64,000 bases of DNA from a bacterium (GCA_036796695.1 DAIRCK010000001.1:16539-80538), one strand, 5' to 3'; counted from the first letter of the stretch, positions 40,714 through 52,404 are shown. Translations and numbers: made by a program. Notes: generated by a model from the letters alone, not told the origin.

Positions 40714-42229
40714 CGCATTTATAGATATAAGGGGAAAGTAATAATAAAGGGTCAATATTTTTGAATTTTTTATTAACAAGGTAAAGGGGATAAGTCCAGT
40801 AGAGAAAGACAAATGGCGGGTCTTCCAAAACGAGTGAATCCATCTGTGCAAGCAAAGAAGCATCGTTAATAGTTTTATACAACTCCCATAATGAATCAAA
40901 TCTTTCTGATTTTAATTCAATCCAGGGTGCTTCAGTAGAAGAATATATGACCAGCTGGGCATCGGGTGTTGAATCAGAAAACATAATTGAAACAGTACCA
41001 AAGTCCCATTCTGGTGCACCCCGTAATACTGCAACCCTTGAGGCGCAGACCAGTTCGGTCTCTATGCCAACTTTTTTCAGTTGACTTTGTAAAAGTTGTG
41101 ATAATTTTCTGGAAAACGGAGTTGGGTAATATTGAAACTTCAACCCCTTCAATTTATTACCCAGTCCTGTCTTTTTTATCAATTCAATTGCCTTTAAAGG
41201 AGAATATTCGTACCTAAAAGGGCTCAGAGTATTTAGTGTAGGACCATCTGCAATCTTTACCCCTGGCATCACCAATAAGTTCTTTATCTCCTCACGATTT
41301 ATTGCATAATTTAATGCCCTTCTCAATATAGAATTTTTGAAGATTGGGTTATCTTTAGAATTGAACAGCAGAACAGTAAGTGATGGAAATGGGTATTGTA
41401 TTATCTGAAATCTCTGCATAAATTCTTCTTTTGTTTGAATTCTTTTTCCATCCCTTTTGAAACATTTTTCTACAACATCCGCGCTTATCGGCGACAGGTC
41501 AACCATTCCATCAAATAAACTCTTTATTGCCTGATTGATGTCCGGGAAGAAAATAACGATAATCTTATCAAGATAAGGCAATTTCTGAGCCCATATATCT
41601 TTTGCCCAGAATCTTTTATTTTTTACCAGCACCAATTCATTTTCATCCCAGGTTTCAAAAACAAATGGTCCTGAGCCGACTGGATGGAAACTGAAATTCT
41701 CGCCGTATTCTTCCACTGCCTCAGAAGGAACTATATAAAGCATCTCGTGATTGAGAGAACTTAGAAAATCCTTGTCTGGACTTTTTAGCAGGAATCGCAC
41801 CCGGAAAGAATCAAGAACTATAATTTCCTGTATGTTATTAACCGGCTCTAAATATGGCCAGGACTTCTTTATCTTCTCATAGGTATATTTCACATCATAC
41901 GCATTTACTACACGTATACCATCTTTAAAACAGGGGTCGGAATGAAAATAACAATTTTTTTTGAGCACAAATTCCCATTGTAGATAATCAGATGAATGGT
42001 TTGCTTTTTCTGTAATCCCCAATTCTGGATTTTCCTGATTATATAATGGAGAATAGACTAGCCTGATAAGTCTCTGGGCTCCGGTACATCCCCAGTCCTT
42101 TGTCGGGTCAATACCAATCAATCCACTGAGCCAGGCAATTCTCAACTCACCCCCGGAGGTTGGTTTAATCTCCTCTGTGCTACAGGAGAGATGAATAAAT
42201 ATTACAAGCAGTAAAATAAAACCCCGCAT
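40706..42229 (-). CDS. Family 5 (peptide/nickel-type) ABC solute-binding lipoprotein
   Basis: Lipobox-like LSC, WEFVLKK..FH, VNAYDVKYT, PVGSGPF; no permease nearby. Confidence 0.85.
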   Translation of the reverse strand: MRGFILLLVIFIHLSCSTEEIKPTSGGELRIAWLSGLIGIDPTKDWGCTGAQRLIRLVYSPLYNQENPELGITEKANHSSDYLQWEFVLKKNCYFHSDPCFKDGIRVVNAYDVKYTYEKIKKSWPYLEPVNNIQEIIVLDSFRVRFLLKSPDKDFLSSLNHEMLYIVPSEAVEEYGENFSFHPVGSGPFVFETWDENELVLVKNKRFWAKDIWAQKLPYLDKIIVIFFPDINQAIKSLFDGMVDLSPISADVVEKCFKRDGKRIQTKEEFMQRFQIIQYPFPSLTVLLFNSKDNPIFKNSILRRALNYAINREEIKNLLVMPGVKIADGPTLNTLSPFRYEYSPLKAIELIKKTGLGNKLKGLKFQYYPTPFSRKLSQLLQSQLKKVGIETELVCASRVAVLRGAPEWDFGTVSIMFSDSTPDAQLVIYSSTEAPWIELKSERFDSLWELYKTINDASLLAQMDSLVLEDPPFVFLYWTYPLYLVNKKFKNIDPLLLLSPYIYKCDE

Positions 42230-42315
42230 AATACCACCTTATTTTATACAATTATTACTACTTTGTCAATATTTATTGCAATTAGGGGAATATGAAAAAA
42301 TTCTTAAGTAGGAGT

Positions 42316-42735
42316 TTAATCTATGGGTCCGAGTTCGGTAATGGATTTTATAAAATTATTTACAACCTCCTGGAATCTGGCGCCTTCTCCAGCAGAAACC
42401 CATTCCAGTTTAAGGCGTCTATCATCAACACCCATTTCTTTCAATAATAATTTGAGTGCATTATATCTCCTCAACGCCTTATAATTACCTGAAATATAAT
42501 GGCAGTCACCCGGGTGGCATCCCGTGATCAAAACCCCATCCACACCTTTTTTGAATGCAGTCAATATAAACTCTGGTTCAATCCTTCCTGAGCACATCGT
42601 TCTTATTATTCTGAAATTGGGATTCATCTGGAGTCTTGAAACGCCAGCCAGGTCAGCACCTGCATAAGAACACCAGTTACAACAGAAGACGATTATCTTT
42701 GGCTTAAAATTAGTCTTATTGTCTGATTGTCCCAT
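42316..42735 (-). CDS. mvhD: MvhD/FlpD [2Fe-2S] subunit
   Basis: CCNWCSYAGAD, MCSGRI, GCHPGDCHY; start at ATG 42735. Confidence 0.92.
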   Translation of the reverse strand: MGQSDNKTNFKPKIIVFCCNWCSYAGADLAGVSRLQMNPNFRIIRTMCSGRIEPEFILTAFKKGVDGVLITGCHPGDCHYISGNYKALRRYNALKLLLKEMGVDDRRLKLEWVSAGEGARFQEVVNNFIKSITELGPID

Positions 42736-42870
42736 AGTCTGATAGTTCTTTAGTGCGGAGTCTAATTGCCTGAAAATCAAGTGGTCCGAAGATATTAATG
42801 ACTATAAGACCATCTGACCATATGACTATATGACTACTCATAGAATGCCTCCACCATCGCCATTATCTGT
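42695..42870. repeat. Near-identical duplicated hdrA-mvhD junction, copy 1 (copy 2 at offset +4026), with 8-nt-period tracts
   Basis: Direct comparison with 46721-46896. Confidence 0.85.
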
Positions 42871-45800
42871 TGTCTTGTGAATCCATACTGGGTCATTGCA
42901 CCAGAAGGACAGGCAGCAACACAGGTTCCACAACCCTTGCAGAGTGCCTCATTAACACTGGAAATGCGTTTACCATCTTTTTCTTTATATAAAATTGCCT
43001 CATAAGGACATAATGCGCCGCACATACCACAACCCGCACAGAGTTCTTCATTGACTGATGATATTGTTGCCTCTGCATAATATTTCTTATTTGATAAAAT
43101 AGTTGCAACACGTGCAACAGCGGCTTGTGCCTGAATTATAGATTCAGCAATTGTCTTTGGACTGTGAGCCATCCCTGCCACAAACACACCCTCAGTGGCA
43201 AAATCAACTGGTCTCAGTTTTATATGGGCTTCGAGGAAGAACCCATCCTGGTTTAAAGGAACCTTGAGCATCTTAGCAAGTTCAGTATTGCTCGGTTCAG
43301 ACACAATACCTGAAGAAAGAACGAGAAGGTCTGTATCAATATTGAATTCTTCCTTAAGAATTGGTTCAAATACCTTGACTTTCAATCTTTCGTTTTCAAC
43401 CCTTACATCTGGCTTATTTTGATCATATCTTATGAAAACAATACCCTTTTCCCTTGCCTTACGGTATAATTCTTCTTTGAATCCATAGGTGCGTATATCT
43501 TTGTATAAAATATAGATATTTGCGTCGGGATTGAGTTCAAGCAGATTCAAGGCATTTTTTATCGCCTGAGAACAACATATACGGCTGCAATACTTTCTCT
43601 TTTCATCACGGGAACCGACACACTGAATCATTACAATGGTCTTATGGTCTGATAGTCGGATAGTCGTATGGTCTGATCCCCTGATACCCTGATCCCCTGA
43701 TATCCTGATATCCTGATAACCTGATAACCTGATTTCCATCTCCCTCTGGGTGACCACTCTCGGGTCTTTGCCATAGAGATATTCGGTTGGTGTATATTCT
43801 TTTGCACCGGTTGCTACAATTATCACCCCATGCTCAAGTTCAATCATATCCTGACATTTGATTTTTGTTTTGTAATTTCCAACAAAACCAGAAATTTCCT
43901 TGATCTCTGCCCCGGTAAATACCTTTATCAATCGATTGTTTTTAATCTTATCGATCATCCTTTCCAAGAAATACCGGACATCCCTACCTTCAAAAGTTTT
44001 ATAGATATGCCTTATGTTACCACCGAGTTCCTTTTCCTTTTCTACAAGAAAGACCTCAAATCCCTGTTCAGATAAAGATAAGGCTGAACTCATCCCTGTA
44101 ATACCACCACCTATCACCAGCGCCTTTTGAATAACATCTATCTCAACCCTTTTTAAGGGTTTAAGCAACCTTGCCTTTGAAACAGCCATCCTGACAAGGT
44201 CCTTTGCCTTCTCAGTTGCCAAAGCCGGTTCATACATATGTATCCAGGAGCACTGGTCACGAATATTTGCCATTTCAAATAAATATGGATTCAAACCAGC
44301 TTCGCGAATTGTATCTCTAAATAATGGTTCATGTGTCCTCGGCGTGCAGGAAGCAACAACGATTCTATTCAATTTATGTTCATTGATCTTTTCAATGATT
44401 CTTTTCTGGGTATCCTGGGAACAAGTATAAAGATTATTTTCAGCATATACAACATCAGGCAATTGTTTTACATATTCAACAATTTCAGGCACATTTACAT
44501 AACCACCAATATTGATTCCACAATGGCAGACAAAAACTCCAATCCTTGGTTTTTCATTTAATACATCCAGTTCCTCAGGATATTCCTTCTTTGTAACCAG
44601 ACTGCCCCTTGCCTCAGCGAGTAATGCCATTGCACTACCAGCAGCGGCCGATGCCTGGGCTACAGTCTCCGGTATATCCTTTGGACCGGCAAATGCACCA
44701 CAAACAAAAATTCCATCACGGATTGTATCAACTGGAATAAATTCAGAAGTTCTGCAAAAACCATAATTATTCAAGTTTATGTGCAAGTAGCGTGATAATG
44801 TGCGCATATCTGATTTTGGCACAAGACCAACCGACAAAACAACCATATCAAATTCTTCCTGTTTAATAGAACCTTCTTCATCTTCATAATGGACGATCAA
44901 ATTTTTTGTTTCTTGGTTCTCTTCAATCCTTGATACCCCGGCACGAACAAATCTAACTCCATATTCGTTCTTCGCACGATTATAATAATCCTCAAATCCC
45001 TTTCCAAATGTCCTTATATCCATATAAAATATTGTTGTCTCAAGCCCGTTCCCTGAATGTTCCTTCGCAATTATTGCTTCTTTTATTGCATAGGTGCAGC
45101 ATACAGAAGAACAATACCCTTTCCCTATCTGTGGGTCCCTTGAACCCACACACTGGATAAAAGCGATTCTTTTTGGTACCTTACCTTCATAGGGTCTTAG
45201 TAAATGTCCTGAAAATGGTCCTGATGCAGATAAAATACGCTCAAACTCAAGACTCGTTACAACATTTTTATAAACACCATAACCAAAATTTGTATAAACC
45301 TTTGGATCAAATGTATCAACACCAGTTGATAAGATAATTGCACCAACATTTATATCTTCAATGACATCACTATCTTTATACTTTATTGCTCCAGCAAGGC
45401 AGATTTTTTCACAAACACCACAACCAAGACAATTATTTTTATCAATCGCATAGACTGCAGGAACTGCCTGTGGGTATTCAATGTAGATGCTCTTTCTACT
45501 TGTTAAACCCTGGTTAAATCTGTCCGCAATTTCAATTGGACAGTGTTTCTTACATTCTCCACAGCCTGTACATTTTGTGGTATCTACATACCGTGCCTTC
45601 TTACGTACATTTACTACAAAATTTCCTGCTTCACCACTCACCCCTTCAATCTTTGCATCGGGGATGATTTTTATATTCAAATGGCGTGCACATTCTACGA
45701 GTTTCGGTGCCATAATACACATTGAACAATCATTTGTCGGAAATGTCTTGTCAAGCATTGCCATTATTCCACCGATAGATGATGAAGAATCCAGCAAATA

Positions 45801-45908
45801 AACCTTAAACCCAGAGTTCGCCAGGTCAAGCGCTGCCTGTATTCCACCAATACCACCGCCAACGACCATTACTGCACCAATCTTCTGATTACTGAAAGAA
45901 TTACTCAT
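42834..45908 (-). CDS. hdrA: Large HdrA-like flavoprotein (two FAD modules, Fe-S domains), 1024 aa
   Basis: GGGIGG..DKTFPTNDC, IQCVGSRD, VCHCGINIG, second GGGITG, C-terminal ferredoxin. Confidence 0.93.
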   Translation of the reverse strand: MSNSFSNQKIGAVMVVGGGIGGIQAALDLANSGFKVYLLDSSSSIGGIMAMLDKTFPTNDCSMCIMAPKLVECARHLNIKIIPDAKIEGVSGEAGNFVVNVRKKARYVDTTKCTGCGECKKHCPIEIADRFNQGLTSRKSIYIEYPQAVPAVYAIDKNNCLGCGVCEKICLAGAIKYKDSDVIEDINVGAIILSTGVDTFDPKVYTNFGYGVYKNVVTSLEFERILSASGPFSGHLLRPYEGKVPKRIAFIQCVGSRDPQIGKGYCSSVCCTYAIKEAIIAKEHSGNGLETTIFYMDIRTFGKGFEDYYNRAKNEYGVRFVRAGVSRIEENQETKNLIVHYEDEEGSIKQEEFDMVVLSVGLVPKSDMRTLSRYLHINLNNYGFCRTSEFIPVDTIRDGIFVCGAFAGPKDIPETVAQASAAAGSAMALLAEARGSLVTKKEYPEELDVLNEKPRIGVFVCHCGINIGGYVNVPEIVEYVKQLPDVVYAENNLYTCSQDTQKRIIEKINEHKLNRIVVASCTPRTHEPLFRDTIREAGLNPYLFEMANIRDQCSWIHMYEPALATEKAKDLVRMAVSKARLLKPLKRVEIDVIQKALVIGGGITGMSSALSLSEQGFEVFLVEKEKELGGNIRHIYKTFEGRDVRYFLERMIDKIKNNRLIKVFTGAEIKEISGFVGNYKTKIKCQDMIELEHGVIIVATGAKEYTPTEYLYGKDPRVVTQREMEIRLSGYQDIRISGDQGIRGSDHTTIRLSDHKTIVMIQCVGSRDEKRKYCSRICCSQAIKNALNLLELNPDANIYILYKDIRTYGFKEELYRKAREKGIVFIRYDQNKPDVRVENERLKVKVFEPILKEEFNIDTDLLVLSSGIVSEPSNTELAKMLKVPLNQDGFFLEAHIKLRPVDFATEGVFVAGMAHSPKTIAESIIQAQAAVARVATILSNKKYYAEATISSVNEELCAGCGMCGALCPYEAILYKEKDGKRISSVNEALCKGCGTCVAACPSGAMTQYGFTRQQIMAMVEAFYE
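43637..43732. repeat. 12 x 8-nt degenerate tandem array inside hdrA
   Basis: tggtctta tggtctga tagtcgga tagtcgta tggtctga tcccctga taccctga tcccctga tatcctga tatcctga taacctga taacctga. Confidence 0.9.
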
Positions 45909-45958
45909 TCAATCCATCCTCGCATTTAATAGGGCAAAAACCCCACCTTTATTTTCAT

Positions 45959-45993
45959 ATTGTTTAGGATTTAGAATTTCGTATTTAGGATTT
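45959..45993. repeat. 7-nt-period tract (AAATCCT AAATACG AAATTCT AAATCCT on minus strand)
   Basis: Overlaps the stop codon at 45985. Confidence 0.7.
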
Positions 45994-46761
45994 AATACTC
46001 TGGTATACCGGATATCCATCTCTTATCTCCTTCATTGATACATCACCTTTTTCCTGGAGTGAGCAGAGACTCTTAAAGACAAAATCAGGAGTTATATTTA
46101 ACTTTGAGGCAATCTGCGGAACAGTCAATTCATTATTCTTCAGTATTCTTATAATTCGCGCCTTTGTATATTCTTCATATAATATTCTTTCAACTCTTTT
46201 CTCATACTCTTCAGCTAAAATTTTTTCACCATAAACATTCTCTTGCTCAGTTATATGATACTCGACACCAGTCAGGTGTCTGAATCTCTCACCCTGAAGC
46301 ACATGCCTGACTGATAGTAACATATCTTTTGTATCTTCATTTATTTTTATTGGTCCTAAATCTTTTATTCTTTCAATAAATGTGTTAACAAGATTGGCAA
46401 ATCTTTCTCCTTCTGCTGCAGATACCCAATCTAAATATAATCTGTCTTTTTCAATTGTAGTATAGGATAAAATTTTCTGAGTAGCAATAATCCTTTTTTC
46501 TGTATTGTAATTCCCATTCAGATAATGGCAGTCGCCAAAATGGCAACCAAGAACCATAACACCATCAATTCCCTTCAGAAGTGCATTTATTATAAATACT
46601 GGGTCAACCCTTCCCGAACACATCACCCTTATAACTCTTATATTTGGTCGGTATTGAATCCTTGATACACCGGCTAAATCAGCCCCGGCATAAGAACACC
46701 AGTTGCACAAAAATCCGAGTATCTTTGGCTTAAAATTAGTCTTATTGTCTGATTGTCCCAT
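45985..46761 (-). CDS. mvhD: MvhD fused to a helical linker and a C-terminal winged-HTH-like domain
   Basis: LCNWCSYAGAD..GCHFGDCHY; tail IIRILKNNELTVPQIASKLNITPDFVFKSLCSLQEKGDV. Confidence 0.85.
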   Translation of the reverse strand: MGQSDNKTNFKPKILGFLCNWCSYAGADLAGVSRIQYRPNIRVIRVMCSGRVDPVFIINALLKGIDGVMVLGCHFGDCHYLNGNYNTEKRIIATQKILSYTTIEKDRLYLDWVSAAEGERFANLVNTFIERIKDLGPIKINEDTKDMLLSVRHVLQGERFRHLTGVEYHITEQENVYGEKILAEEYEKRVERILYEEYTKARIIRILKNNELTVPQIASKLNITPDFVFKSLCSLQEKGDVSMKEIRDGYPVYQSIKS

Positions 46762-46896
46762 AGTCTGATAGTCCTGTAGTGCAGAGTCTAATTGTCTGAA
46801 AATCAGAGGGTCCGAAGACGTTAATGACTATAAGACCATCTGACCGTATAACTATATGACTACTCATACAACGCCTCCACCATTGCCATAATCTGC
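46721..46896. repeat. Duplicated hdrA-mvhD junction, copy 2
   Basis: See 42695-42870. Confidence 0.85.
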
Positions 46897-49800
46897 TCAT
46901 TGGTAAAGTGTCTCATTGTTATTGCCTGCTGTGGACAGGATGCAGCACAACTACCACAACCCTTACAATAGGCAGATATGACTTCTGAACGATAACCTTT
47001 TTCAGTCTTTTTCAACAAATGTGCCTGATACGCGCACAAGACCTCGCAGATTCCACAACCAATGCATTTTTCTTTATCCACTTCAGCAACTGCAGGCAGG
47101 ACTTCGATTGTATTACTGGCGAGCACAATACCCGCCCTTGCACTCGCTGCCTGAGCCTGGGCAATTGATTCATCAATCGCCTTTGGTGAATGTGCCATAC
47201 CACAGATAAATATTCCATCTGTAGCAAAATCAACAGGACGTAATTTCATATGTGCCTCAAGGAAAAAACCATCCTCATTCAGAGGCACTTTTAATAACTG
47301 GGCAATCTCTTTATTAGATTTGTCCGGTACAATCCCTACTGAAAGAACCACAATGTCAGCAATTATTTCAATCGTTTCATCAAGTATCGGTTCTCTTGCT
47401 CTTACAATCAAGTTCTCTTTATCTATAATAATTTCAGGTTTATATTCATCATCATATCTTATAAATATCACACCCGCATCCCTTGCTTTTTGATAATATA
47501 TTTCATTAAACCCGTATGCCCTTATATCTTTGTAAAAGATAATTACCTCGTTTTCAGGATTTCTCTGTTTAATAAGCAAAGCATTTTTTATCGCCTGAGA
47601 ACAACATATACGGCTGCAATACTTTCTCTCTTCATCCCGCGACCCAACACATTGAATCATTACAATGGTTTTATGGTCTGATAGTCTGATAGTCGGATAG
47701 TCGGATGGTCGGATAGTCGGATGGTCTGATCCCCTGATACCCTGATCCCCTGATATCCTGATATCCTGATAACCTGATAACCTGATTTCCAGCTCCCTCT
47801 GTGTAATTATCCTCGGGTCTTTGCCATAGAAGTATTCGGTTGGTTTATACTCTTTGGCACCGGTTGCAACGATTATTACCCCGTGTTCAATCTCAATTAT
47901 TTCCTGATTATTTTTTCCAATTTCTCGTCTTTCTATTCTTGTATGGAAGTTTCCGATATATCCAGTCACCGATTCTATTTTACTACTTTTATAAATTTTT
48001 ATATTGGGGTGTGATTCAACTTTATTTATCAACGAATTCAAATATTCTTTAACATCCCTTCCATCAATTGTATTATTTATATGCCTTGCATTCCCGCCCA
48101 ATTCTTCCTTCTCTTCTACAAGAAAAACTTCGTAACCCTGGTTTGCCAGACTCAATCCTGCATTCATTCCACTGATTCCACCACCGATAACAAGTGCCTT
48201 CTGAATCACCGGGATAGTAATTGCTGGTAGAGGTTCTAAATAACCTGCCCGGGCACAAGCCATTCTTACAAGGTCCTTTGCCTTAGCTGTTGCCTGTTCA
48301 GGTTCCTGGGAATGAACCCAGGAACACTGATCTCTTATATTTGTGAATTCTAAAAGAAATTTATTCAATCCTTTTTCCCTTATCGTCTCCTGGAATAAAA
48401 CCTCATGGGTTCTTGGTGTGCAGGCAGCAACGACAACCCGGTTAAGTCTATACTTCTCAATCATCTCTTTTATATGTCGTTGTGAATCATCAGAACAGGA
48501 ATATAGATTATTCTCTGCATATACTACATTGGGTAAGGTCTTTGCATATTCAACAACCTCCATCACATTCACTGTTCCGGCAATATTTATCCCGCAATGG
48601 CAGACAAAGACACCAATTCTTGGTGGTTCACCAGAAAAATCAATTTCCGCAGGATATTCAATTTTTTTTGTGAGTGAAAACCTTTGGTCTTTTATCAACT
48701 CAATTGCATTCTGTGCTGCACCGCTTGCCTCAATCACGGTCTCAGGAATATCTTTGGGTGCAGATGCAGTTCCACAGAGAAAAATTCCAGGCTGGATGGT
48801 CTCAACTGTAGAAAATGGAAGGGATTTGAAAAAGTTGAATTCAGTTAGTTCCAAATTCAAAATTTGGGCAAGTTTTTTGACATTATCATCAGGCACCAAT
48901 CCCACCGATAATACAACCATATCAAACTCTTCTTTTATTAATTTACCCTGCTCATCCTCATATTTGAGCAACAGATTTTTGCTCTCGGGTAATTCCTTTA
49001 TTTCTCCGATCATCGCCCATTTGAATCTTATCCCATATTTTTCTTTTGCCCTTTTGTAGTATGCCTCAAAACCCTTGCCAAATGTGCGCATATCCATATA
49101 AAATATTGTGCATTCAAGAGAACGATTATGTTCCTTCATTAAGATCGCCTCTTTTATGGCATAGGCACAGCAGACTGAAGAGCAATACCCCTGACCCGAT
49201 TTTGTATCACGTGAGCCCACACATTGAATAAAGGCAACCCTTTCTGGTTCTCTCTTATCAGATAGTCTTAACAGATGCCCCTGAAAGGGTCCAGATGCAT
49301 TCAATATCCTTTCCAGTTCAATAGATTTTATTACATTTTGATATCTCCCATAACCATACATCGGCTTTAGACGCGGGTCAAAATGTTTAACACCTGTGCC
49401 AATGATGATACTGCCAATATTAATATCAATAATCTTATCACTCAGATTAAAATCAACTGCCTTTGTTGGGCATAGAATCTCACAGACCCTGCATTTACCA
49501 CCCTTTAAAAAATAGGTGCAATGCGCTTTATCAATCACTGCCTTGTTCGGAACTGCCTGGGGAAATGGAACATAAATTGCCTTTCTTTTTCCCAGGCCAG
49601 ATTCAAATTCTGATTCAACCTTAATCGGGCATTTTTGCCAGCAAACACCACAACCATTACACTTTTCCCAGTCCACAAATGGAGATTTTTTCAAAATTCG
49701 CACATTAAAGTTGCCTGGCTTGCCTGATAACTCCAAAAGTTCTGCATAGGTAATTAATTCAATATTTGGATGCCTTCCGGCACTAACAAGTTTCGGAGCA

Positions 49801-49994
49801 AGGATACACATTGAACAATCATTCGTGGGAAAGGTCTTGTCAAGTTGTGCCATCACACCGCCAATACTCGGTTCTTTTTCTAATAAATAAACCTTGAAAC
49901 CGGAGTCCGCGAGGTCTAATGATGCCTGAACTCCACCAATACCACCACCCACAACTAAAACCGCACCAATTGTGTTATTATCTTTGGCATCCAT
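46860..49994 (-). CDS. hdrA: Large HdrA-like flavoprotein paralog, 1044 aa
   Basis: Same two-module architecture as 42834-45908. Confidence 0.93.
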   Translation of the reverse strand: MDAKDNNTIGAVLVVGGGIGGVQASLDLADSGFKVYLLEKEPSIGGVMAQLDKTFPTNDCSMCILAPKLVSAGRHPNIELITYAELLELSGKPGNFNVRILKKSPFVDWEKCNGCGVCWQKCPIKVESEFESGLGKRKAIYVPFPQAVPNKAVIDKAHCTYFLKGGKCRVCEILCPTKAVDFNLSDKIIDINIGSIIIGTGVKHFDPRLKPMYGYGRYQNVIKSIELERILNASGPFQGHLLRLSDKREPERVAFIQCVGSRDTKSGQGYCSSVCCAYAIKEAILMKEHNRSLECTIFYMDMRTFGKGFEAYYKRAKEKYGIRFKWAMIGEIKELPESKNLLLKYEDEQGKLIKEEFDMVVLSVGLVPDDNVKKLAQILNLELTEFNFFKSLPFSTVETIQPGIFLCGTASAPKDIPETVIEASGAAQNAIELIKDQRFSLTKKIEYPAEIDFSGEPPRIGVFVCHCGINIAGTVNVMEVVEYAKTLPNVVYAENNLYSCSDDSQRHIKEMIEKYRLNRVVVAACTPRTHEVLFQETIREKGLNKFLLEFTNIRDQCSWVHSQEPEQATAKAKDLVRMACARAGYLEPLPAITIPVIQKALVIGGGISGMNAGLSLANQGYEVFLVEEKEELGGNARHINNTIDGRDVKEYLNSLINKVESHPNIKIYKSSKIESVTGYIGNFHTRIERREIGKNNQEIIEIEHGVIIVATGAKEYKPTEYFYGKDPRIITQRELEIRLSGYQDIRISGDQGIRGSDHPTIRPSDYPTIRLSDHKTIVMIQCVGSRDEERKYCSRICCSQAIKNALLIKQRNPENEVIIFYKDIRAYGFNEIYYQKARDAGVIFIRYDDEYKPEIIIDKENLIVRAREPILDETIEIIADIVVLSVGIVPDKSNKEIAQLLKVPLNEDGFFLEAHMKLRPVDFATDGIFICGMAHSPKAIDESIAQAQAASARAGIVLASNTIEVLPAVAEVDKEKCIGCGICEVLCAYQAHLLKKTEKGYRSEVISAYCKGCGSCAASCPQQAITMRHFTNEQIMAMVEALYE
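47666..47785. repeat. 15 x 8-nt degenerate tandem array inside hdrA
   Basis: Last 8 units are identical to those of the 43637 array; 3 more units. Confidence 0.9.
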
Positions 49995-50020
49995 AATATT
50001 CCCTCACCCTTAAACTCTAC

Positions 50021-50896
50021 CTATAATTTCTCCAATAATACCTTTGTAGATACTCTGTTCATCTGCAAACCCAGTGCCTTTGGTTCCAGACCCATTGCGA
50101 GTCCTAAAACCTGCGGATAATAAAGCACCGGAAGGTTATATTGCTCCTGGAACTTCTGCTCAATCCTTTTCTGATTATCATCGAACATCACACTACAGAA
50201 TGGACACATAAGGACCATCGCATCCGCCGAATTATTTGATAGCTCTTTTAATTTTGGTCTGGTCAGGGAATAAGCTGTATCCTCGTTGATAGCGAGTATT
50301 CCAGCACCACAACATTTCAATTTTTCAGAGTAATTTACCACTTTTGCCCCTGTTACTGCAATCAATTCATCCAGGGATTTTGGATTCTCCGGGTCTTCAG
50401 CAGGTTCATAGATATCAGAGGGCTTTAAATAGTGACAACCATAATGCGGGGCAAGGGTTAGATTGGCTAATCTCTTTTTTACGAAATCTTCAATCTTCTT
50501 TGTGCCGATCTCTTCATATAAAATTTTTACCAGATGTTTGACCCTGATCCCCTTACCCATTCTGAATTCAATACCCTGTTTTTTGAATTGGGCAATTAAC
50601 TTTGCCTTTTCATCAAAATGTTCATTCAGGTGCTTATTGACCTCGGTTAAAGAACCGGTGCAGGCACTGCACAAAGTGCAGATATCAATTCCTTTTTCCT
50701 CTGCAGCCAAGATATTGCGCGCTGCCATTAAGTAGTATGTATTATAGTGGACTGATTTCAAAGGGAATCCACAGCATTCAAAATCATCAAAGTCAACAAG
50801 TTCAATACCCAGGGCTCGAGCAACTGCCCTTGCTGATATTTCGTAGTTTCTACCCCGACCCAGAACCGTGCAACCCGGGAATAAAGCATATTTCAT
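50021..50896 (-). CDS. hdrB: Heterodisulfide reductase subunit B
   Basis: Two CCG domains (ECCGFP, KCCGAG), YGCHYLKP, CPFC. Confidence 0.93.
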   Translation of the reverse strand: MKYALFPGCTVLGRGRNYEISARAVARALGIELVDFDDFECCGFPLKSVHYNTYYLMAARNILAAEEKGIDICTLCSACTGSLTEVNKHLNEHFDEKAKLIAQFKKQGIEFRMGKGIRVKHLVKILYEEIGTKKIEDFVKKRLANLTLAPHYGCHYLKPSDIYEPAEDPENPKSLDELIAVTGAKVVNYSEKLKCCGAGILAINEDTAYSLTRPKLKELSNNSADAMVLMCPFCSVMFDDNQKRIEQKFQEQYNLPVLYYPQVLGLAMGLEPKALGLQMNRVSTKVLLEKL

Positions 50897-50967
50897 AAGA
50901 CCCCACCCTTCACTTTTGGACCATCTAAGAATAATGTTAATGATACAATACTCTCTTTAGCGCATTT

Positions 50968-51089
50968 AAATTCGAAATCCGAGGCACTAAATTCTAAACA
51001 AATCCAAAGAAGAAATAACCACTGTTTGGAGCCTGGAAATTTGCGATTTAAGTATTGCTTAGAATTTAGAATTTTTGTATTAGGATTTA
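50968..51089. repeat. MITE-like element with 7-nt-period inverted arms
   Basis: Left AAATTCG AAATCCG AGGCACT AAATTCT AAACAAAT; right TTAGAATTTAGAATTT..TTAGGATTT. Confidence 0.65.
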
Positions 51090-51583
51090 TTTCCATTTCT
51101 ATTTCTCTGAATAATCTTATCAATCCCAGTTATCTCCATTATGCGCTGGGTGAATCCCTTTGATTTTGCGACCTTAGGAAGTCCCATTGCTGCTCTTTTG
51201 TTATTGTCAAATTCATCAATTTCATACAATCTTCCGAATTGTCTTAAGAGACCTATCTGCTGGATATATGCATCTGGAACATACCCTTCTTTTACAGCAA
51301 GATTTTTTATCGCATTCATCACATCGGTGAACCTGACTCCCTGGGGACATCTCTCAGTACAGGCATAACAACTTGAACAGAACCAGATGAAATCATTTTC
51401 AAGAACCCGCTTTTTCATTCCAAGAAGAATCATCCTTATTATCTTTCTCGGATTGTATCTTTCATCAATCTCCCTGACCGGACAACTTGCAGTGCATATT
51501 CCACAGGCAAAACAGAGTTTTATATTTTCACCACCTGGTTCCTGTGCAACTTCATATTTAAATTTTGGGTCAATCTCATTCAT
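51080..51583 (-). CDS. hdrC: Heterodisulfide reductase subunit C
   Basis: CFACGICTASCP, CSSCYACTERCPQG; start at ATG 51583 with SD. Confidence 0.92.
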   Translation of the reverse strand: MNEIDPKFKYEVAQEPGGENIKLCFACGICTASCPVREIDERYNPRKIIRMILLGMKKRVLENDFIWFCSSCYACTERCPQGVRFTDVMNAIKNLAVKEGYVPDAYIQQIGLLRQFGRLYEIDEFDNNKRAAMGLPKVAKSKGFTQRIMEITGIDKIIQRNRNGNKS

Positions 51584-51609
51584 AAATCTCCTGCCTTCTT
51601 CACCCCTAT

Positions 51610-52404
51610 TCATCTAAACAGTAGGTGCTTTTCTATCTTTTTCAGCAGTGTCTGGGTGTCGACAGGTTTATCAATGAAATCATCTGCAAGATGGTCAATT
51701 GCAATGTCAACTGCATATTCAGGTTTTGAAAGTTGCTGTCCTATTGCTGTTAGCATAATTATCGGAATTGGCCTTGTCTGCGGATTCCTTCTTAATTCAT
51801 AACATACTGTATATCCATCCTTTCCCGGCATAATCACATCAAGAAATATCAAATCTGGATTTTCAATCTTTGCCTTCTGTATACCTTCATCACCATCTTT
51901 TGCAGTAATCACTTCAAAACGATTTGCCAGAAGGATCTGTTTTGTCGCTTCAAGAAAATCCGGATCATCATCAACGAGTAAAATCTTAGGTCTTTCACTT
52001 TCTACCTTTGGTTTAGGTGCGGAAGTAGTTAAAAGGAAGTTAACCTTGTCTAAAAGTAATTCAGGGCTTGCAGGTTTTTCAATATAAGCATCTGCTTTAT
52101 GCTGAATACCAATGTTTTCCGGATAACCGCCTGGTTTTGCACCAATAGAAGTGAAGAGAATTACTGGTATATTCTGTAAGTTAGGATCATCCTTTATCTC
52201 CCGGCAGACAGAAAAGCCATTTATATCCGGGAGGATAACATCAAGGATAATTAGATCAGGCTTTTCATTAAGCACCTTTTGAATTCCGGTCTTTCCATCA
52301 TAGGCAGGAATAACTTCGTATCCAGCATTATTGAGAATGATTTTGTTTGCTTCAACAAAATCCCTATCATCATCAATGAATAAAATTTTTGATTTTTTCA
52401 TCAC
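51610..52404 (-). CDS. Tandem double-receiver (REC-REC) protein with no output domain
   Basis: Two complete REC domains (LDVILPD..EKP; LDVIMPG..DKP). Confidence 0.88.
   Translation of the reverse strand: MMKKSKILFIDDDRDFVEANKIILNNAGYEVIPAYDGKTGIQKVLNEKPDLIILDVILPDINGFSVCREIKDDPNLQNIPVILFTSIGAKPGGYPENIGIQHKADAYIEKPASPELLLDKVNFLLTTSAPKPKVESERPKILLVDDDPDFLEATKQILLANRFEVITAKDGDEGIQKAKIENPDLIFLDVIMPGKDGYTVCYELRRNPQTRPIPIIMLTAIGQQLSKPEYAVDIAIDHLADDFIDKPVDTQTLLKKIEKHLLFR

Follow-up and report, generated by a model that had tools for sequence, protein, structure and literature searches.

Tandem repeats that are hypermutable and whose unit is not a multiple of three nucleotides are textbook switches of surface and restriction genes in host-adapted pathogens. 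We know of no such repeat in any core redox enzyme from an uncultured environmental phylum. Duplicated bacterial genes are known to evolve in concert through gene conversion, as in tufA/tufB. The subject of this work is a pair of octanucleotide (octamer) arrays within two paralogous hdrA genes, which code for HdrA-like flavoproteins, in a 64-kb stretch of bacterial DNA (DAIRCK010000001.1:16539-80538; 64,000 nucleotides, hereafter the window). In Haemophilus influenzae, hepta- and octanucleotide repeats take part in phase variation, including phase variation by intragenic frameshift (PMC2651432). TAACTGA heptamer direct repeats occur in marine Beggiatoaceae, cyanobacteria and Bacteroidetes, where they are mostly intergenic and near start codons, and in an RpoC-like protein three reverse units of this heptamer are read in frame as part of a variable surface loop (MacGregor 2015, PMC4679880). 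Among the long simple sequence repeats (SSRs) of prokaryotes, units of 6-9 nt are reported as rare (PMC4692102, and work cited by PMC4679880).

We consider it quite probable that the arrays in the window are a live octanucleotide microsatellite that codes for a disordered loop, tolerant of insertions, in the second flavin adenine dinucleotide (FAD) module of a fused HdrA, that this microsatellite is hypermutable, homogenized by conversion and filtered for frame, and that there is no dedicated, selected switch. Both arrays were found at one site, between TQRE(M/L)EIR and TIVMIQCVGSR of the second FAD module, and in both the 8-nt unit, which is not a multiple of three, is repeated within the open reading frame (ORF), in 12 copies in hdrA1 and 15 copies in hdrA2. 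Tandem Repeats Finder (TRF) assigned period 8 to these arrays with 79-90% matches. In a sliding periodicity test that required at least 85% self-match at lag p across 32 nt, runs were found in the window for period 8 alone and at the two hdrA array sites alone, and in 50 block shuffles there was no run of any period. The original prediction, which had been made from the sequence alone, was therefore right about the site and the unit numbers, and its description of two sub-families, eight shared units, flanks and translation was also accurate. In the coding direction the units of the hdrA1 array are AATCAGGT TATCAGGT TATCAGGA TATCAGGA TATCAGGG GATCAGGG TATCAGGG GATCAGAC CATACGAC TATCCGAC TATCAGAC CATAAGAC. 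The 5' half consists of 7 NATCAGGN units in both arrays and the 3' half of YATNNGAC units, 5 in hdrA1 and 8 in hdrA2. Units 1-8, which are the 'last eight' when read on the plus strand, are the same in the two arrays. The units are degenerate, and the longest runs of identical units, in the window as well as in the L164/L165 arrays of related contigs, are of 2-3 units, so that the long identical runs that characterize contingency loci were not found. The translation is LSGYQDIRISGDQGIRGSDH(T/PTIRPSDYP)TIRLSDHK. Because 8n is divisible by 3 only if n is, arrays of 96 and 120 nt stay in frame. All three frames are open across the array and all encode the same octapeptide in cyclic permutation, since any frame of (TATCAGAC)n is a permutation of YQTIRLSD.

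When the window HdrA2 was looked up as an exact sequence on other contigs there was no match, and relatives were then reached by homologue search; their DNA was gathered via exact-protein look-ups, cluster members and one metagenome scan. That scan, which used the 3' flank, returned mostly unrelated HdrA genes sharing the VMIQCVG codons, and its informative hits were L131 (which is the L001 contig), L141, L160 and L163 alone. The unit counts refer to the stretch between GAGNTGGA and NATYGTNATGATTCA. The in-frame alleles had 15 units in the window hdrA2 and in the hdrA2 of L001, L164 and L165 (in these three made up of 10 NATCAGGN and 5 YATNNGAC units, compared to 7 and 8 in the window), 12 units in the window hdrA1, 9 units in L002, L141 hdrA1 and L160, and 6 units in L127 hdrA1, L163 and both paralogs of L123 and L126. 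The out-of-frame alleles had 8 units in L127 hdrA2 and L169, 71 nt in L141 hdrA2 and 20 units in the hdrA1 of L164 and L165. Natural in-frame and out-of-frame alleles with unit counts of 6, 8, 9, 12, 15 and 20 are the kind of polymorphism by which SSR contingency loci are recognized, and in the intact genes the loop varies from 16 to 40 residues. L002 and L127 hdrA1 are 99-100% identical outside the array and yet have 9 and 6 units, respectively, with different unit types. Thus an expanding repeat that passes through a frame filter, as had been proposed, agrees with intact relatives having 6, 9, 12 or 15 units and with 99%-identical genes that differ by 3 units. Lengths differ between strains, and at the place of the array orthologues contain either a different repeat or a shorter loop coded by octamers, rather than a loop of equal length free of repeats. 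Between L164 and L165, 10 differences were counted in 11,414 nt, of which 2 fall within the 160-nt array (Poisson p = 0.009). Decayed 6-unit loops (KIFNQTFQPFNYKTIAM, RLSANQTFGLSDYKTIVM) showed one loop throughout their 90% clusters with no length variation and, since the decayed loops are fixed in length, length instability tracks repeat perfection as slippage predicts. The relatives with 6 units are entirely without the CAGG half. From these sequences the array appears to be a mutational hot spot.

Some further observations concern the array in individual relatives. The hdrA1 array of L141 (6162-6175), from an older Joint Genome Institute assembly, has N exactly where unit types vary (TATCNGAC NATCAGAC), which suggests mixed unit variants in the sampled population. 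In L124 (13600-13700) ~8 octamer units of this family lie at the corresponding loop (LSGYQGIRASDHATIQPSD) in the gene for P0036, a 1495-aa protein of a longer HdrA subfamily that is 55% identical and is extended at the N terminus by ~480 residues; the octamer repeat in this subfamily is either old or was exchanged between subfamilies. In the metagenome-assembled genome (MAG) binchicken_co274_33 (L166 8001-10754, L167 3554-6307), hdrA is fragmentary, with ORFs of 232 and 562 aa and a truncated FlpD gene, and its degenerate 15-unit octamer array resembles a fossilized expansion in a decaying copy.

Split alleles exist in natural populations as assembled consensus. Four independent out-of-frame alleles were found, in L127, L141, L164/L165 and L169, all exactly at the array, and as consensus they account for about 4 of the 14 sampled gene copies. 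Every one of them divides hdrA into an N-terminal ORF and an ORF of 265 aa (264 aa in L169) whose start is the Met of VMIQCVGSRD. The 8-unit L127 hdrA2 gives ORFs of 755 and 265 aa and the 20-unit hdrA1 of L164/L165 gives ORFs of 783 and 265 aa, the stop in both lying 10 nt ahead of the AUG. The 20-unit allele was assembled identically in frame and length from two samples, by MEGAHIT and by SPAdes, with 2 single-nucleotide polymorphisms (SNPs) between them in the array. In L141 hdrA2, which has a single-base deletion, the stop overlaps the ATG as TAATG; its N-terminal ORF of 715 aa begins near the contig start, the complete N-terminal ORFs being those of 755 and 783 aa. In L169, whose 8 units include a 24-nt duplication, the last unit is without TAA, reading ends ~25 nt past the AUG and the ORFs overlap, and only 152 aa of the N-terminal part are left. 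On this 3.1-kb contig (1077-2235) a fragment of HdrA2 module 2 comes directly after a sigma-54 activator fragment and the first ~600 hdrA codons are absent, a layout that is either a rearranged remnant or a chimeric assembly. When one or two units were added to or removed from the window genes in simulation, translation always stopped at the 3' edge of the array, either at the TAA of the last unit, with 10 nt left to the native AUG, or at TAATGA over the AUG. The earlier statement that gain or loss of a unit would truncate HdrA is supported as a possibility by the four natural alleles. The split copies had no other stops or lesions, and their ratio of non-synonymous to synonymous substitution rates (dN/dS) relative to the window was 0.07-0.17, the same as in intact copies; hence they are either recent or still functional, between which dN/dS does not discriminate. 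In 4 of the 4 contigs showing both paralogs, the second paralog was in frame.

Within a genome the DNA of the paralogs is ~60% identical for the greater part of the gene, compared to 74-94% between orthologues. Over the ~100 nt that follow the array, identity was 91-99% for within-genome paralogs and ~78% for the orthologues of L123 and L126. In four genomes, sequences of the island around the array group by genome and not by orthology, and the hdrA-mvhD spacer is likewise grouped by genome. Judged by these identities, localized gene conversion takes place between the hdrA paralogs and, because of it, both paralogs would have eight identical units and similar arrays, rather than owing them to ordered independent growth. 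The arrays also contain higher-order duplications of 16 and 24 nt, such as the nested repeats (TATCAGGA TATCAGGG GATCAGGA) x3 in L164, (AATAAGGT TATCAGGG CATCAGGA) x2 in L169 and (CATCCGAC TATCCGAC) x2 in the window, and differences between alleles are internal and not at one end. Nested repeats and internal changes fit slipped-strand mispairing together with unequal conversion. A probable course of events is that the number of units shifts by slipped-strand mispairing in steps of 8, 16 and 24 nt and also by unequal gene conversion between the tandem paralogs, and that conversion keeps the array, with ~100 nt to either side, almost uniform within a genome. Alleles of 3n units only lengthen or shorten the loop and hence persist, because all frames are open with the same permuted octapeptide. 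With any other count translation ends at the 3' edge of the array and the gene becomes ORFs of ~715-783 aa and 265 aa. Given a permissive loop and a second copy of the gene, a hypermutable tract would be tolerated here, and the tract would incidentally yield on/off (or fused/split) variants of one paralog.

That the array encodes a disordered loop is predicted by an AlphaFold2 model built with 76 homologues (mean predicted local distance difference test score, pLDDT, 86; predicted template modelling score, pTM, 0.89). Internally pLDDT falls below 50 at residues 744-768 only, which is within the array-coded loop, and in the model this loop is bounded by a helix at 732-739 (QRELEIRL) and a strand at 776-783 (IVMIQCVG) that runs into the Cys-rich CVGSRD motif. 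Other HdrA lineages have unrelated low-complexity inserts at the same loop, one of them a degenerate heptamer tract, (RAGAARC)n, and from these it follows that the loop takes insertions. The suggestion of a tunable loop near the flavin site stands only in so far as a predicted disordered loop lies just before the CVGSRD strand.

The proteins belong with HdrA by sequence and fold similarity, by motifs and by association with hdrB, hdrC and mvhD. A phmmer comparison with the methanogen HdrA 5ODC_A gave E = 6e-224 in three stretches, and Foldseek aligned the model with 5ODH_A/5ODC_A at a template modelling score of 0.80. The alignments show no variation in GGGIGG, in GGGI(S/T)G, in two QCVGSRD motifs or in the pairs of CxxCxxCxxxC at the C terminus. 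By the three phmmer stretches the hdrA product is a complete HdrA ahead of which an extra FAD module with an inserted ferredoxin domain is fused. The window is 37% G+C, and its minus strand bears two clusters in tandem, hdrC-hdrB-hdrA2-mvhD and hdrA1-mvhD (Table 1), flanked by two-component regulators and a sigma-54 activator. Genes for CCG-domain, 4Fe-4S dicluster and FlpD proteins flank both hdrA genes, and their order is kept in relatives. In the longer MvhD/FlpD protein a C-terminal extension of ~120 aa is without a Pfam match at E <= 1e-5. The nearest homologues are candidate division WOR-3 genomes from metagenomes, and by its sequence the host would be an uncultured WOR-3-type bacterium.

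Table 1. Coordinates of the hdr genes, octamer arrays and associated features in the window
Feature	Position	Strand	Description	Detected by
hdrA1	42834-45908	minus	1024 aa, fused two-module HdrA-like flavoprotein	
hdrA2	46860-49994	minus	1044 aa, fused two-module HdrA-like flavoprotein, 60% identical to hdrA1	
mvhD/FlpD-family gene 3' of hdrA1	42316-42738	minus	140 aa	
mvhD/FlpD-family gene 3' of hdrA2	45985-46761	minus	258 aa	
hdrB	50021-50896	minus	CCG domains; 5' of hdrA2	
hdrC	51080-51613	minus	4Fe-4S dicluster; 5' of hdrA2	
Octamer array in hdrA1	43639-43734	minus	12 units, 96 nt; codes residues 725-756	TRF, periodicity test
Octamer array in hdrA2	47668-47787	minus	15 units, 120 nt; codes residues 736-775	TRF, periodicity test
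In-frame ATG (Met of VMIQCVGSRD), hdrA1	43629-43631	minus	8 nt after array	
In-frame ATG (Met of VMIQCVGSRD), hdrA2	47658-47660	minus	equivalent of hdrA1 ATG	
Putative gene-conversion island, hdrA1 array (approximate)	43534-43844	minus	paralogs 81-93% identical vs ~60% elsewhere	
Putative gene-conversion island, hdrA2 array (approximate)	47563-47897	minus	same paralog comparison	
hdrA1-to-mvhD spacer cassette	42700-42845	minus	reverse array 42798-42836, forward array 42711-42746	
hdrA2-to-mvhD spacer cassette	46726-46871	minus	arrays 46824-46862 and 46737-46773; paralogous to hdrA1 cassette	

Four short arrays of the same family (YATNNGAC), in both orientations, were found in the two hdrA-to-mvhD spacers, where the original prediction had overlooked them; beyond the two hdr clusters the family was not found elsewhere in the 64-kb window. 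Each spacer is a conserved cassette in which the reverse and the forward array are predicted to pair into an RNA hairpin spanning the mvhD start codon (minimum free energy -34.6 kcal/mol, z = -2.8), and five sequences compared over it were nearly invariant. An ORF of 41 codons bridges the spacer, overlapping with the hdrA stop (ATGAGTAG) at one end and with the mvhD start at the other. The paralogs differ in it by 3 synonymous and 7 non-synonymous changes and because of this it probably encodes no conserved protein, but it may serve translational coupling. L002 (3810-3950) and L127 (11856-12030, and 7900-8060) have identical hdrA1/mvhD flanks and wholly different spacers between GTGGAGGC and ATTTCAAGCC, one strain having the octamer-hairpin version and the other an unrelated version of ~175 nt with its own inverted repeats. 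L127 is without spacer octamer arrays. Paralogs of one genome always share one spacer version and, since identically flanked strains carry different cassettes, the spacer behaves as an exchangeable module.

Other short repeats were seen near these genes and in other genomes. Heptamer arrays of (T)AAATYCY lie in spacers adjoining hdrA or mvhD, in the window at 45963-45994 and in the more distant WOR-3 relatives L123 (13038-13068, 17136-17166) and L126 (13038-13107), and L123 again has a bridging ORF from the hdrA stop to the mvhD start. In the WOR-3 MAG RS_18_8 (L014 1415-1600) an array of ~8 units, (AGGAGATC)n, ends 14 nt upstream of a start codon and resembles tandem Shine-Dalgarno (SD) sequences, and AAATGCCT repeats flank a terminator-like hairpin just upstream of it. 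In unrelated bacteria (L003 1903-2036, L091 3641-3790, L112 3353-3400 and L077 7712-7760), pairs of inverted NATCAGGN arrays enclose a short loop and thus make long hairpins, whose design is close to that of the window spacer cassette. When genome contigs were scanned for four ATCMGRNN units, >120 loci in many phyla came up, mostly perfect repeats at gene ends, which are generic octamer microsatellite background. A widespread shared ATCMGR element was rejected because permuted cores gave similar counts, viral contigs having 52 loci with this core compared to 37, 42 and 40 for three permuted cores. A repeat-peptide search of limited sensitivity found five tiny hypothetical ORFs only and no other protein family with this coding array, and Rfam gave no match in 42000-51000. 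AGGGUAUC was dropped as a prfB-like frameshift site since it has neither a shift-prone codon nor a stop.

Two observations weigh against a tolerated microsatellite, the persistence of the repeat and the frequency of split alleles. Octamer periodicity is kept at the loop across orthologues ~75% identical in DNA and in the 1495-aa subfamily, and such persistence outlasts the usual neutral microsatellite and could therefore mean selection on the sequence itself. In addition, a share of ~4/14 out-of-frame consensus copies is large for a deleterious state, and the split form may thus be functional or favoured. Adaptive phase switching is possible, and the array could be a selected contingency locus, in which one HdrA paralog switches reversibly and frequently between a fused (on) and a split or off state to the benefit of the population and conversion sustains the switch in both copies. 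The four independent alleles at the array, which affect either paralog while the partner is always intact, the large share of out-of-frame consensus copies, the absence of other lesions and the normal dN/dS in split copies, the persistence of the repeat across deep divergence, the stops that adjoin a restart AUG and the precedent of hepta- and octanucleotide phase variation in H. influenzae, including intragenic frameshift (PMC2651432), all speak for it. Nevertheless, we regard it as unlikely, because the units are degenerate with 2-3 identical neighbours at most, so that slippage would be slower than in classical switches, one 20-unit allele is the consensus in two samples, which points to a stable state more than to a very rapid flicker, and the target is a cytoplasmic redox enzyme, unlike the usual surface or restriction-modification gene. 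Moreover, that both paralogs were never off in 4/4 contigs is statistically non-significant. It is rather less likely still that a maintained switch toggles one electron-bifurcating HdrA paralog between a fused form (1,0xx aa) and a form of two polypeptides made by termination-reinitiation at the VMIQCVGSRD AUG, with gene conversion renewing and copying the switch. A quite different doubt is that the repeat was misassembled or misread, so that length differences and frameshifts would be artefacts. All sequences are metagenome assemblies, which can err in repeats, and in L141 one array contains ambiguous bases while the other has lost a single base; yet three arrays are of only 64-71 nt, the arrays as a whole (64-160 nt) are degenerate and mostly below read length or largest k-mer, the 160-nt allele of 20 units was recovered twice, by both MEGAHIT and SPAdes from different samples 2 SNPs apart, and in-frame alleles of four lengths come from eight independent contigs, all of which makes artefacts very improbable.

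Function might also lie in the nucleic acid, with the NATCAGGN half acting in the mRNA as SD-like or regulator sites, for ribosome pausing between domains or recruitment of a post-transcriptional regulator, and the arrays at the mvhD start belonging to the same circuit. In each 3-kb gene SD-like sequence is densest in the CAGG half, and this half with the preceding AGAGGGAG is where the mean anti-SD duplex energy over 60 nt is lowest. In addition, the mvhD start codon is flanked by arrays of this family with a hairpin of z = -2.8, in a WOR-3 genome the (AGGAGATC)n array lies 14 nt ahead of a start codon, regulator binding has been proposed for TAACTGA repeats (PMC4679880) and nucleotide identity between paralogs is high at the array. 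We nonetheless find such a role improbable since single sites are weak (minimum -6.5 kcal/mol compared to -9 to -10 elsewhere in the genes), unit number and make-up vary freely among close strains, the 6-unit relatives have no CAGG half and L127 has no spacer arrays; also, the anti-SD energies rest on an assumed 16S 3' end for the host. About equally improbable is that the octapeptide (xSDxxTIR / xSGxQxIR) is itself the functional unit, as a flexible tether or docking arm with a length tuned by selection. Even divergent orthologues keep a two-fold 8-residue loop pattern, for example FNHSTIKPLNYSTVVM and LSANQTFGLSDYKTIV, and the motif is similar to an RPSD element before the equivalent strand of module 1, but strong 8-nt periodicity means recent DNA duplication and not peptide conservation, the loop is predicted to be disordered, other lineages have unrelated low-complexity sequence instead and intact genes range from 16 to 40 residues. 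Finally, the original prediction had favoured templated addition of units over simple slippage, and such addition could be the work of a reverse-transcriptase or telomerase-like activity. The sole support for templated addition is the ordered 5'-to-3' gradient of unit variants, which is explained by local duplications of 1-3 units (16- and 24-nt steps among them) and two independently expanding halves. Allele changes are internal and not terminal, the blocks shared by the paralogs are accounted for by gene conversion between them, and no reverse-transcriptase-like domain was found among the window neighbours or in the Pfam lists of six related loci, and we give templated addition hardly any credence.

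The locus offers natural alleles of an HdrA-type flavoprotein that are graded in loop length (16 to 40 residues) and are either fused or split, and it shows localized gene conversion between paralogs clearly. Annotation pipelines will call 'truncated' or 'partial' HdrA here, and these are repeat-length alleles and not gene decay; metabolic reconstructions of WOR-3 (PMC12542636) should allow for them. If the fused/split switch were true, it would mean that a free-living anaerobe remodels its central energy metabolism stochastically.

When compared with known systems, the hdrA arrays resemble SSR contingency loci in having a tandem unit that is not a multiple of three within an ORF, in unit-number differences between close strains and in natural out-of-frame alleles at the tract. 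They are unlike these loci in that the unit is of 8 nt, degenerate and of two sub-families, and in that the host gene codes for a cytoplasmic electron-transfer flavoprotein of a free-living anaerobe and is not a surface or restriction-modification gene. They also differ in that in-frame expansions are kept as loop-length variants and out-of-frame alleles leave a restartable ORF of 265 aa. With the TAACTGA repeats they share direct repeats of 7-8 nt that are open in one orientation and stop-rich in the other, and the window and its relatives also have short arrays at start codons; however, sequence, unit length (8 nt, NATCAGGN / YATNNGAC) and phylum differ, and the long hdrA arrays lie in a conserved enzyme and are hypervariable. 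The TAACTGA repeats form a network of many copies across the genome. Within the 64-kb window the octamer family is at two hdr clusters alone, and its spacer copies abut the mvhD start. Like prokaryotic long SSRs the arrays are short-unit tandem repeats that arise by slippage, but units that are not a multiple of three are usually kept out of coding regions, whereas the hdrA array would persist via the filter for 3n units. As in tufA/tufB, paralogs within a genome are closer to each other in the converted tract than orthologues across genomes are; unlike in tufA/tufB, conversion appears limited to two islands of ~200-300 nt, the array region and the hdrA-mvhD spacer, in genes that are otherwise 60% identical. 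The proteins themselves are like the HdrA of the methanogen HdrABC-MvhAGD complex (PDB 5ODC, 5ODH, 8RVU, 7BKB) in fold, in the GxGxxG and CxGSRD...C..CC motifs, in the C-terminal ferredoxin and in the hdrC-hdrB-hdrA-mvhD context, and differ from it in being bacterial (WOR-3-like) fusions of 1,024-1,044 aa with an extra N-terminal FAD module.

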